Notes under the pieces: generated by a model
The model's input: only the letters and a program-made list of their open reading frames with translations
What the model was told of the DNA's origin: nothing
The model's database searches: none
Part shown: one piece after another, positions 10,700 to 58,140 of the stretch
Layout: each line of letters begins with the position of its first letter
Numbering within the stretch: position 1 is the first letter of the stretch
Made by a program: the position numbers and the translations under genes
Sequence record: OQ378934.1
DNA length: 64,000 nt
Direction: 5' to 3' (one strand)
Source: Escherichia phage LH2

Positions 10700-10704
10700 A
10701 TTTC

Positions 10705-12162: not shown

Positions 12163-12220
12163 GTTTACAAGACTGTTCCTCTGTGGTACTATACAACTAT
12201 CAACTACGGAGGAACAGAAA
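12163..12220 (+). repeat. Promoter-leader cassette (PeSL-like), copy B
   Basis: 42 nt (gtttacaagactgttcctctgtggtactatacaactatcaac) identical to 37487-37528. Confidence 0.6.
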
Positions 12221-37470: not shown

Positions 37471-37550
37471 AATTTTTCACAAAGCTGTTTACAAGACTGT
37501 TCCTCTGTGGTACTATACAACTATCAACCAATACAAATTTGGAGAATGAA
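37471..37550 (+). repeat. Promoter-leader cassette (PeSL-like), copy C
   Basis: Contains the 42-nt block identical to 12163-12204 and the ttggagaatgaaATG leader. Confidence 0.6.
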
Positions 37551-56028: not shown

Positions 56029-56517
56029 ATGATTATTAATATTGGTGAAATTGCTCGTGTATCTGATAAATCCCGTTCTAAAGCAGCAGGAAAATTGGTC
56101 GAAATTGTAAGCATTCAGCTTAAACACGGTGTTAAAGATGAAGATTCTGAAGTAAAAGTTCGTATCATTCCTAAAGATGGAAAGTCTAAACCTCAGTTTG
56201 GTTATGTTCGCGCGAAATTTCTTGAATCTGCGTTTTTGAAAGCTGTTCCTGCTAAAGGAATTGAAACGATTGATACTTCGCATGTAGGTGTAGACTTTAA
56301 GTGGAAACTCGGTCAAGCTATTAAGTTCGTTGCTCCTTATGAATTTAACTTTATCAAAGACGATGGAAGGGTTGTTTATACTCGTGCTATGTGTGGATAC
56401 ATTACCGATCAATGGGTAGAAGATGGTGTTAAGCTGTACAATGTGGTATTTTTAGGAACATACAAAGTCATTCCTGAAAGTTGGATTAAACACTATAGCA
56501 ATGCTCTCTATGCATAA
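56029..56517 (+). CDS. Hypothetical protein (tandem paralog 2)
   Basis: 162 aa; C-terminal block ...CGYITDQWVEDGVKLYNVV... shared with the 55410 ORF. Confidence 0.5.
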   Translation: MIINIGEIARVSDKSRSKAAGKLVEIVSIQLKHGVKDEDSEVKVRIIPKDGKSKPQFGYVRAKFLESAFLKAVPAKGIETIDTSHVGVDFKWKLGQAIKFVAPYEFNFIKDDGRVVYTRAMCGYITDQWVEDGVKLYNVVFLGTYKVIPESWIKHYSNALYA

Positions 56518-56550
56518 AGTTTAAATTTTTTCATAAAACTATATACATCA

Positions 56551-56628
56551 GTAGTTGATTATGGTACTATATCAATATCAACTACTGATACAGAAAACAA
56601 CTTGGAGAATAAAATGGAAATTCGCTAA
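56551..56628 (+). repeat. Promoter-leader cassette (PeSL-like), copy D, carrying a 4-codon micro-ORF
   Basis: tggtactatatcaatatcaac ... ttggagaataaaATGGAAATTCGCTAA; leader conserved with copies A and C but ORF stops after MEIR. Confidence 0.5.
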
Positions 56629-56687
56629 AGGTGCTGATACTCTTCTGAAACGCATCGCTCCAATGTTCAATTAATGAGGAAATTGTA

Positions 56688-56903
56688 ATGAAACGTAAAA
56701 TTGTTCAGAATTGCACTAATGATGAATTTGAAGATGTATTATTCGATCCAGATTTGGTAGTAGTTCAAAAGGAACATACTAGCAAGTTTACTCACTTGAC
56801 TTCGGTTTATGTGTATGAGAAAGTCGGTGATAAACAGCCAATTTATGGTGTATTTCGTGAAATTACTGAAGATGGCACAACTTACTGGAAGGAAATTTAT
56901 TAA
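56688..56903 (+). CDS. Hypothetical protein
   Basis: 71 aa; SD GAGGAAA. Confidence 0.5.
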
Positions 56904-57322
56904 TGGCTATTAAATTTGAAGTTAATAAATGGTATCAATTTAAAAATAAACAAGCTCAAGAAAATTTTATTAAAGACCATACTGATAACGGAATCTATGC
57001 ACGACGTTTAGGTATGGAGCCTTTTAAAATTTTAGATGCTGATTATCTTGGGCGTCCTACTAAAATTATGACATCCATAGGTGTGCTCAAACGTTGTGCC
57101 GGCGGTGATATCCTTGATGAAAACTTTATCTGGCTCTCTACTAACGAAGCTGGGTTCTTTGATGAAGTTGAAAATCCATATCAGGCTGCTGAAGAACAAG
57201 AGCAGGAAGAGCAAGAACAAATAGAAGATTTCACAGAATTCCCGGTAATGAAAGTTACTATTGAAAATAATGAACAAGCATGGTCTTTGTATCAGATGTT
57301 GAAAGCTCACTTTAAGGAATAA
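56903..57322 (+). CDS. Hypothetical protein with acidic Gln/Glu stretch
   Basis: 139 aa; [16 protein letters not shown]. Confidence 0.5.
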
Positions 57323-57324
57323 TT

Positions 57325-57501
57325 ATGCCTCTTTATGATTATAAATGTCAATCCAAAGACTGCGCAAAAGAATACGAAAAAATCAAGAAAATTTCTGAAA
57401 GGGATACTGATGTATGTCCTGATTGTCATCGGATTGCTATTCGGTTAGTTTCCGCTCCTAAGCATGTGAATGGTGGATTTTACGACTTACTTAAAGGGTG
57501 A
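57325..57501 (+). CDS. FmdB-family-like zinc-ribbon protein (58 aa, below ORF-track cutoff)
   Basis: MPLYDYKC..C...CPDC pattern typical of FmdB-type zinc ribbons. Confidence 0.5.
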   Translation: MPLYDYKCQSKDCAKEYEKIKKISERDTDVCPDCHRIAIRLVSAPKHVNGGFYDLLKG

Positions 57502-57503
57502 TT

Positions 57504-57875
57504 ATGTTTAAAATCGGTAAGAAATATCGTGTTCGCGAAGGTGAAGAAAAGAAATATCTACTTTCTTCTATTTATAGGAATGGTTCTATTAATGCCGTAA
57601 TATCTACAAGTGAATTTATCGTTGAAGATATGAAAGGTAATAATGTTACAATGATTAGTACATCATCTGGAAATGATGGAAAAATTCTTCACAGTTTTCA
57701 GAGTAATGTTCTAATTTATGATGAAGAATTTGACTTCTTCGAAGAAGTTCCTGAAGATTTTGATTTTGGATGCACCATCACTATGAAATCTGGCGACCCT
57801 CTTTCTTTTACAGTTAAAGATGAAAGAAGTCGCTTGAGAATTATTAGTCTCCTTCAAGCCATTAAATTTGAGTGA
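57504..57875 (+). CDS. Hypothetical protein
   Basis: ATG 57504; 123 aa. Confidence 0.5.
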   Translation: MFKIGKKYRVREGEEKKYLLSSIYRNGSINAVISTSEFIVEDMKGNNVTMISTSSGNDGKILHSFQSNVLIYDEEFDFFEEVPEDFDFGCTITMKSGDPLSFTVKDERSRLRIISLLQAIKFE

Positions 57876-57879
57876 AATT

Positions 57880-58140
57880 ATGAAATATGTTAATCGTTCT
57901 ATCGCGGCATTAGTATTAGCAGTATCTTTAGTAGGATGTACTGATGCTGATAACGCAACCAAAGTTTTGTCTTCAAGCGGTTTTACTAATATTGAAATCA
58001 CTGGATACAATTGGTTCGGTTGCTCTGAAAATGATTTCCAGCATACTGGATTTCGTGCTATTGGACCTACTGGGCAGAAAGTAGAAGGAACAGTATGTTC
58101 TGGGCTGTTCTTTAAGGATTCGACTATCCGTTTTAAATAA
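57880..58140 (+). CDS. Lipoprotein
   Basis: MKYVNRSIAALVLAVSLVGC lipobox. Confidence 0.55.
   Translation: MKYVNRSIAALVLAVSLVGCTDADNATKVLSSSGFTNIEITGYNWFGCSENDFQHTGFRAIGPTGQKVEGTVCSGLFFKDSTIRFK

Follow-up and report, generated by a model that had tools for sequence, protein, structure and literature searches.

Organization of the motB–cef Region

The window analysed in this study, the whole 64,000-nt stretch of Escherichia phage LH2 (record OQ378934.1), derives from a T4-like phage (Tequatrovirus). A 1.5-kb query around the micro-ORF described below matched 708 phage records, with Escherichia phage HMD-9 as the best match at 99.4% and T4 at 96.6%. The order of genes on the + strand is dexA, two motB-neighbour ORFs, motB, cef, goF, 39.2, two small ORFs, and gene 39. 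In the list of open reading frames, motB (162 aa, annotated under this name in T4T and relatives) comprises 56029–56517, with its stop codon at 56515–56517, cef comprises 56688–56903, and goF, 3′ of cef, comprises 56903–57322. As stated in the initial annotation, cef (ATG 56688) has a Shine-Dalgarno sequence (SD) of its own, GAGG at 56676–56679. In T4, 39.1 (86 aa) alone separates 39.2 from gene 39; in the window, this interval (57498–58140) contains two ORFs, of 125 and 90 aa, the shorter of which has a lipoprotein-like signal (…LAVSLVGC…). This difference is another indel in the plastic region to which the motB–cef locus also belongs.

The 170-nt spacer between motB and cef contains an A/T-rich region, a putative promoter whose −10 element is enclosed by a stem-loop, a leader with an SD, a four-codon micro-ORF that reads MEIR-stop, and the 3′ remnant of a gene. 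No Rfam family was found in 56400–56800, the T4 records AF158101 and M89919 contain no promoter feature at the motB–cef site, and the literature consulted offered no mapped promoter, no transcript 5′ or 3′ end, no cut by RegB, and no footprint of ribosomes for the site.

Putative Promoter Elements and Stem-loop

The upstream region tttaaattttttcataaaacta (56520–56541, + strand) is A/T-rich and UP-element-like and aligns with aaaaattttcacaaaac of two other copies of the cassette in the window, at 10700 and 37465. T4 early promoters have been described as UP/−35/TGn/−10 promoters (PMC2988021). In the motB–cef spacer, the A/T-rich region is followed by a −35-like hexamer, TATACA (56542–56547), a 17-nt spacing, and an extended −10 element, TGgTACTAT (56562–56570), which is identical in the three copies and matches TAYWAT; the corresponding sequence in the other two copies is TTTACA-N17-TGgTACTAT. 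The −35 hexamer, which had been thought to be missing, is altered instead and matches TTTACW at five of six positions. TATACA-N17-TACTAT, with TG at −15/−14, agrees at 11 of 12 positions with the T4/PST consensus TTTACW-N17-TAYWAT (PMC4122927) published for PeSLs, the promoter-early stem-loop cassettes of T4-like phages (Arbiol et al. 2010, PMC2839356; Comeau et al. 2014, PMC4122927). The transcription start is predicted to lie near A56577.

Eighteen sites in the window match the pattern T[TA]TAC[AT]-N16-18-TA[CT][AT]AT, and every one of them is on the + strand. Of these, ~13 have TGn and lie just upstream of an SD and ATG, and the site at 56542 is the only TGn-bearing match with TATACA. A simple sigma-70 scan, which ignores TGn, did not call a promoter at 56542–56570 (8/12, below its threshold of 9/12). 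Because the generic promoter/terminator scan left the site unflagged, the assignment of a promoter rests on the alignment of the cassette family and on the TGn motif. Elsewhere in the window, the early promoters at 12164–12215 and 37488–37540 have an identical core of ~45 nt, spacer included (TTTACAagactgttcctctgtggTACTATacaactatcaac), suggesting recent recombination or gene conversion between cassettes that are 25 kb apart.

The −10 element is located in the loop of a 13-bp perfect inverted repeat with arms at 56547–56559 and 56577–56589. Folded as RNA, this stem-loop has an energy of −20.2 kcal/mol (z = −6.3), and none of 200 shuffled sequences was as stable. It is not followed by a U-tract, and the intrinsic-terminator rule predicts no termination. 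Because the left arm precedes the predicted start (approximately A56577), with which the right arm begins, the stem-loop would form only on transcripts that come from motB. In the more distant T4-like sequences L008–L018, a GTTTAC promoter is present upstream of cef and its −10 element is likewise bracketed by a stem, the arms of which are, by group, GGTGTAGG/CCTACACC, GGTAGGAGC/GCTCCTACC, and GAGGGCTAT/ATAGCCCT. The sequence of the stem thus differs from group to group, and therefore it is the arrangement that is conserved and not the sequence.

Within the closer group, the TATACA hexamer, the extended −10 element, and the stem-loop are invariant in all 11 aligned alleles that carry the deletion described below, with no variable column among the 48 columns of promoter and hairpin. 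The initial annotation of this site as a decayed cassette is an overstatement.

Leader and Candidate RegB Site

The leader ttggagaataaa (56602–56613) leads directly into ATG GAA ATT CGC TAA (56614–56628), and the SD of this micro-ORF, GGAG at 56604–56607, is separated from ATG 56614 by 6 nt. The sequence of the leader, the start codon, and the four-codon frame is as first described. Two exact copies of the 15-mer leader sequence TTGGAGAATAAAATG are present in the window, at 56602 and 10776, and a third copy, at 37539, has one mismatch; matches with two or three mismatches are at the level expected by chance (12 found, 8.1 expected). An alignment of the three copies of the cassette that begins in the A/T-rich upstream region, spans the −10 element, and ends at the ATG has a mean column identity of 76%. 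The likeness of the leader at 56602 to the repeated cassette is not due to chance.

The SD is part of the sequence GGAGAATAAAA (56604–56614, + strand), which agrees at all 11 positions with the consensus for strong RegB/S1 sites, GG*AGRAYARAA (PMC3014915); 10778 and 56604 are the only places in the 64-kb window where this consensus is matched. Between the predicted transcription start and cef, the RNA would have less structure than shuffled sequences, with z values of +1.6 in the window and +0.9 in T4. A 6-nt complementarity, TTGGAG/CTCCAA, that appears in the centroid fold of the leader was judged to be a chance pairing and was set aside.

The Intact Gene in Related Phages

IMG/VR was searched for relatives of cef, and the regions upstream of these were read. 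In one of them, L007, the cassette that follows motB is identical to that of the window, with the same TATACA, inverted repeat, and leader, but its ATG opens an 89-aa ORF that ends with …HDVKFAKGAATLLKRIAPLFN-stop, 13 nt before cef. In phage RB5, too, this cassette heads an intact 89-aa ORF, the 3′ end of which is colinear with window positions 56618–56674, and the same arrangement is present in RB68 and, in all, in about 261 related records. In both L007 and RB5, the 89-aa gene truly starts at the codon that corresponds to ATG 56614. Hence the place occupied by the micro-ORF in the window is occupied in related genomes not by unrelated sequence but by the same cassette at the head of an intact gene, which answers the question, raised initially, of what gene the cassette once led.

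The 89-aa product matches phrog_3720 over its full length (E = 2.6e-46), a family of early proteins of T4-like phages that have 89–96 residues and unknown function. The protein has no sequence match in Pfam, NCBIfam, PADLOC, or the PDB, and a word-indexed protein search returned two clusters only. For a single-sequence AlphaFold model of the protein (pLDDT 72.5), Foldseek found no match better than E = 0.13, and the weak RNase H-like matches of this model were discarded as noise. With tblastn, the intact gene was found in 401 phage records, of which 261 have at least 95% identity (RB5, RB68, the slur phages, and others) and 140 are from Klebsiella and Raoultella T4-like phages with ~41% identity. 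The Klebsiella homologue aligns from end to end, including the C-terminal KFAK…N segment that is retained in the window; it is preceded by a GTTTACA promoter of its own and by the same GGAGAATAAAATG leader. Because this homologue is full-length and has such a promoter and leader, the gene and its cassette are old and the short state is derived.

The opposite polarity, in which the short state is ancestral and the gene of the other phages was inserted at this spot, was considered in view of the distant T4-like sequences L010–L018 (~1420–1503), where a promoter/stem-loop cassette with the leader gagaggaaaataaaATG directly precedes cef with no gene between, which makes an earlier acquisition of the gene probable. 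It is very improbable for the short alleles studied here, as both ends of the gene survive in the window, in different frames, on either side of a single copy of a repeat that is doubled in the intact alleles, and the retained C-terminal segment belongs to a protein that is conserved at 41% in Klebsiella phages. These comparisons point to a gene that was probably gained at the motB–cef spot in the Tequatrovirus lineage and later lost in part of that lineage.

Deletion Junction and Allele Diversity

In the intact alleles, a 6–7-nt direct repeat, AAAATT(T), flanks a segment of 208 nt, and all short alleles keep one copy. The ends of the segment in RB5 (L021) are ATGGAAAATTTAATT … GTAAAATTTGCC, which can be parsed as ATGG-AAAATTT-AATTATC … GATGT-AAAATTT-GCCAAAGG, and those in L007 are ATGGAAAACTTAATT … GTAAAATTCGCC. 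The junction in T4 is ATGGAAAATTCGC (in a longer reading, ATGGAAAATTCGCTAAAGG), and that in L003 and OES_C-2 is ATGGAAAATTTGCCAAAGG; the product predicted by deletion from RB5 is the L003/OES_C-2 allele. Junctions were read by eye because MAFFT misplaced the large gap; all deletion alleles have the same junction. The repeats sit exactly at both ends of the deletion and one copy is kept, which identifies it as a short-homology deletion. In the window, the surviving copy is AAATT (56618–56622), shortened by one A in the lineage of the window.

The loss amounts to 208 nt in T4 and 209 nt in the window, neither of which is a multiple of three, and both lead to premature stops. T4 reads MENSLKVLILF-stop because 208 is not divisible by three, and the further absence of one A from the junction run in the window, Lutter, and G8 (28 records in all) gives MEIR-stop. 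Searches specific for the junctions retrieved 49 records of the T4/RB32/OES type and 69 of the L003 type, sets that overlap and include GenBank/RefSeq duplicates. Roughly one third of the relatives have the deletion scar and about two thirds keep the gene. The C/T difference at the junction follows the local background, so that a single deletion event spread by recombination and two parallel events are inseparable here.

Downstream of the junction, the last 19 codons of the phrog_3720 gene, KFAKGADTLLKRIAPMFN-stop, remain at 56618–56674 (+ strand, colinear with L007 1430–1487), in the +1 frame relative to the micro-ORF. The MEIR micro-ORF itself consists of the ATG and the next few bases of the lost gene, read on out of frame into this 3′ remnant. 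The initial proposal of a remnant of a displaced gene start therefore holds in that a gene start is what remains, an intact 89-aa gene being present in relatives; the gene was not displaced, however, but deleted internally, with both ends still in place.

Variability within the locus is highest in the remnant, with 14 variable columns among 63 and three indel events, compared with 15 variable columns in the first 100 nt of cef, in a comparison that comprises only 11 related deletion alleles. Its indels include +3 and +1. From this pattern, constraint on the phrog_3720 remnant appears to be relaxed. The stubs encoded by the deletion alleles have 4, 11, 12, or 20 codons (MEIR, MENSLKVLILF, MENLPKVLLLF(F), and MENSLKVADTLLKRIAPLFN). 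The last of these is from L022 (PV295201, Shigella phage vB_Shso_BCPShso_001; 151–245), in which an extra G (GGTGGCTGAT) restores the old frame, so that the stub, MENSLKVADTLLKRIAPLFN-stop, ends 13 nt before cef; the extra G could be compensatory, a chance event, or a sequencing error. In L023 (OK570375, Escherichia phage UoN_LDJ77_1), the SD of the stub is changed from GGAG to GGAT (cggataataaaatg as compared with ttggagaataaaatg), and this is the only one of 12 aligned alleles (10 short, 2 intact) to have lost GGAG.

A second, independent inactivation of the 89-aa gene is present in the three metagenomic contigs L029–L031 (Logan SRR3205841; ENA ERZ28579409 and ERZ28580026). In this lesion, 12 nt (ATTGCTGAATGC) are replaced by T, a net loss of 11 nt that creates GAT TAA and splits the ORF into 33 + 58 aa. 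In L030 (183–441), the one member of this group that was read here, the TG of the extended −10 element is replaced by AG.

The 37–39-Residue Reading Frame

A second ORF overlaps the cassette at 56555–56674 on the + strand (39 aa from TTG, or 37 aa from ATG 56561). It is annotated as a hypothetical protein of 37–39 aa in Lutter, fPS-90, HMD-9, and other records; the annotation is found at NC_054924 5812–5925, LR215723 g009c, and PV287714. A real small protein might be supposed from a frame that is open for 37–39 codons in the alleles with three A residues at the junction and that has been called by several annotators. The supposition is highly unlikely to be correct, however, as the start is inside the −10 element and left stem, upstream of the predicted transcription start and without an SD, the N-terminal two thirds consist of promoter and leader sequence, and the C terminus is the remnant frame. 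Moreover, the frame breaks after 22 codons in T4 and in every four-A allele, owing to the extra A, and exists only because the additional loss of 1 nt merged two frames. The ORF is very likely an annotation artefact, a frame fusion made by the 1-nt loss.

Probable Origin of the Scar and Role of the Surviving Cassette

The interpretation that we favour, with a probability of roughly 0.85, is that the locus is the deletion scar of an 89-aa gene behind a PeSL-type early promoter cassette that most likely still functions, and that the stub has no function of its own. On this interpretation, a cassette of the PeSL kind originally served the early gene (phrog_3720) between motB and cef. A slipped-strand or illegitimate deletion between the AAAATT(T) repeats then removed 208 nt in the lineage of T4 and the window, fusing codons 1–3 out of frame to the last 19 codons, and the window lineage subsequently lost one further A in the junction run to give ATG GAA ATT CGC TAA. 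By membership in the PeSL family and by conservation, the promoter may be expected to fire immediately after infection from the start predicted above, now at the head of the cef-goF-39.2 transcript, and the stem-loop to attenuate or end transcripts arriving from motB. On the same grounds, the GGAGAATAAAA leader would probably be cut by RegB/S1 early in infection. The micro-ORF, as a pseudogene stub, would be translated only incidentally. Most likely, the surviving cassette now acts as the immediate-early promoter of cef-goF and supplies a 5′ leader sensitive to RegB.

A functional upstream ORF, which might control cef by translational coupling, by opening structure, or by shielding the leader against Rho or RNases, would be consistent with the strong SD (GGAG, 6-nt spacing) and ATG on the presumed cef transcript, with the retention of leader and ATG in nearly all alleles, and with the restored frame of L022, whose stub ends 13 nt before the cef ATG. 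We consider it improbable, and the coupling that the initial annotation had offered as an alternative finds no counterpart in the geometry of the site. The distance from the stop of the micro-ORF to the cef ATG is 59 nt in the window (TAA 56626–56628 to 56688) and 38 nt in T4, and neither the length nor the peptide of the stub is conserved; in L023 the SD of the stub is altered. In addition, cef is provided with its own SD, the leader RNA lacks any stable structure that translation of the micro-ORF could open, and the presence of the same leader and ATG is accounted for by descent from the intact gene.

Recoding at the junction, by ribosomal frameshifting or by transcriptional slippage on the A run, could in principle join the start to the old frame, which is open to 56674 behind a homopolymeric A run, and so produce a 20-aa peptide, ME-KFAKGADTLLKRIAPMFN. 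This would need a +1 shift in the three-A alleles and a −1 shift in the four-A alleles, at a site with no canonical slippery heptamer or downstream structure and followed by a remnant that carries +3 and +1 indels, and it is extremely improbable.

Also unlikely is the proposal that the stub is not inert and the scar has been exapted as a 5′ regulatory leader, in which a RegB-consensus SD and a short translated ORF, retained at the start of the cef-goF transcript, gave cef and goF the immediate-early, RegB-terminated timing of the lost gene. If this were the case, a RegB cut at GG/AG would leave a 5′-OH end and lead to decay of the downstream message, and the persistence of the leader and ATG while the remnant decays would be explained.

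Under the favoured deletion-scar interpretation, the stub is an ordinary pseudogene stub and not a new regulatory device, and T4 itself is in the same state. The scar opens no new mechanism, and its value is largely for annotation. The 170-bp "empty" motB–cef spacer of T4 is explained as the scar of a gene that ~2/3 of sequenced relatives keep, and the "hypothetical protein" of 37–39 aa in several GenBank records is exposed as a product of frame fusion. The locus also provides a clean, base-resolved case of a short-repeat deletion beside a PeSL-type promoter in a plastic early region.

Comparison with Known Systems

The cassette shares with PeSLs an A/T-rich upstream region, a sigma-70-type −35/N17/−10 arrangement that matches the T4/PST consensus at 11 of 12 positions, a stem-loop over the −10 element, and an SD (GGAG) and start codon (ATG 56614) at its 3′ end, and like them it is intergenic, in a plastic early region, and adjoins an indel. 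PeSL promoters have been shown to be strong and their stems to act as terminators or attenuators, and a stem-loop that overlaps the −10 element is a published subclass (PMC2839356). The site differs in that its −35 element has one departure (TATACA), its stem is A/T-rich and not G/C-rich, and its promoter and terminator are putative. It differs also in the nature of the indel, as the deletion at motB–cef is internal to a gene and lies between repeats of 6–7 nt, not between two PeSLs; it represents the non-PeSL route of deletion through short homology that is mentioned by the PeSL authors.

As for the deletion, the spontaneous short-homology deletions of Albertini et al. 1982, in the account of them given in PMC4122927, have their endpoints at a short direct repeat of which one copy is kept. 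The motB–cef deletion shows nothing unusual by comparison with these, and replication slippage and recombination are inseparable from sequence as its route.

The predicted RegB/S1 site resembles known ones in that GGAGAATAAAA is in an unstructured, intergenic translation-initiation region of an early transcript. RegB/S1 sites occur in the SD regions of T4 early genes, where not all GGAG sites are cut (PMC3014915). With respect to the phrog_3720 family, the window retains the start codon and the last 19 codons of the gene and differs from the intact members in that its copy is a non-functional stub.
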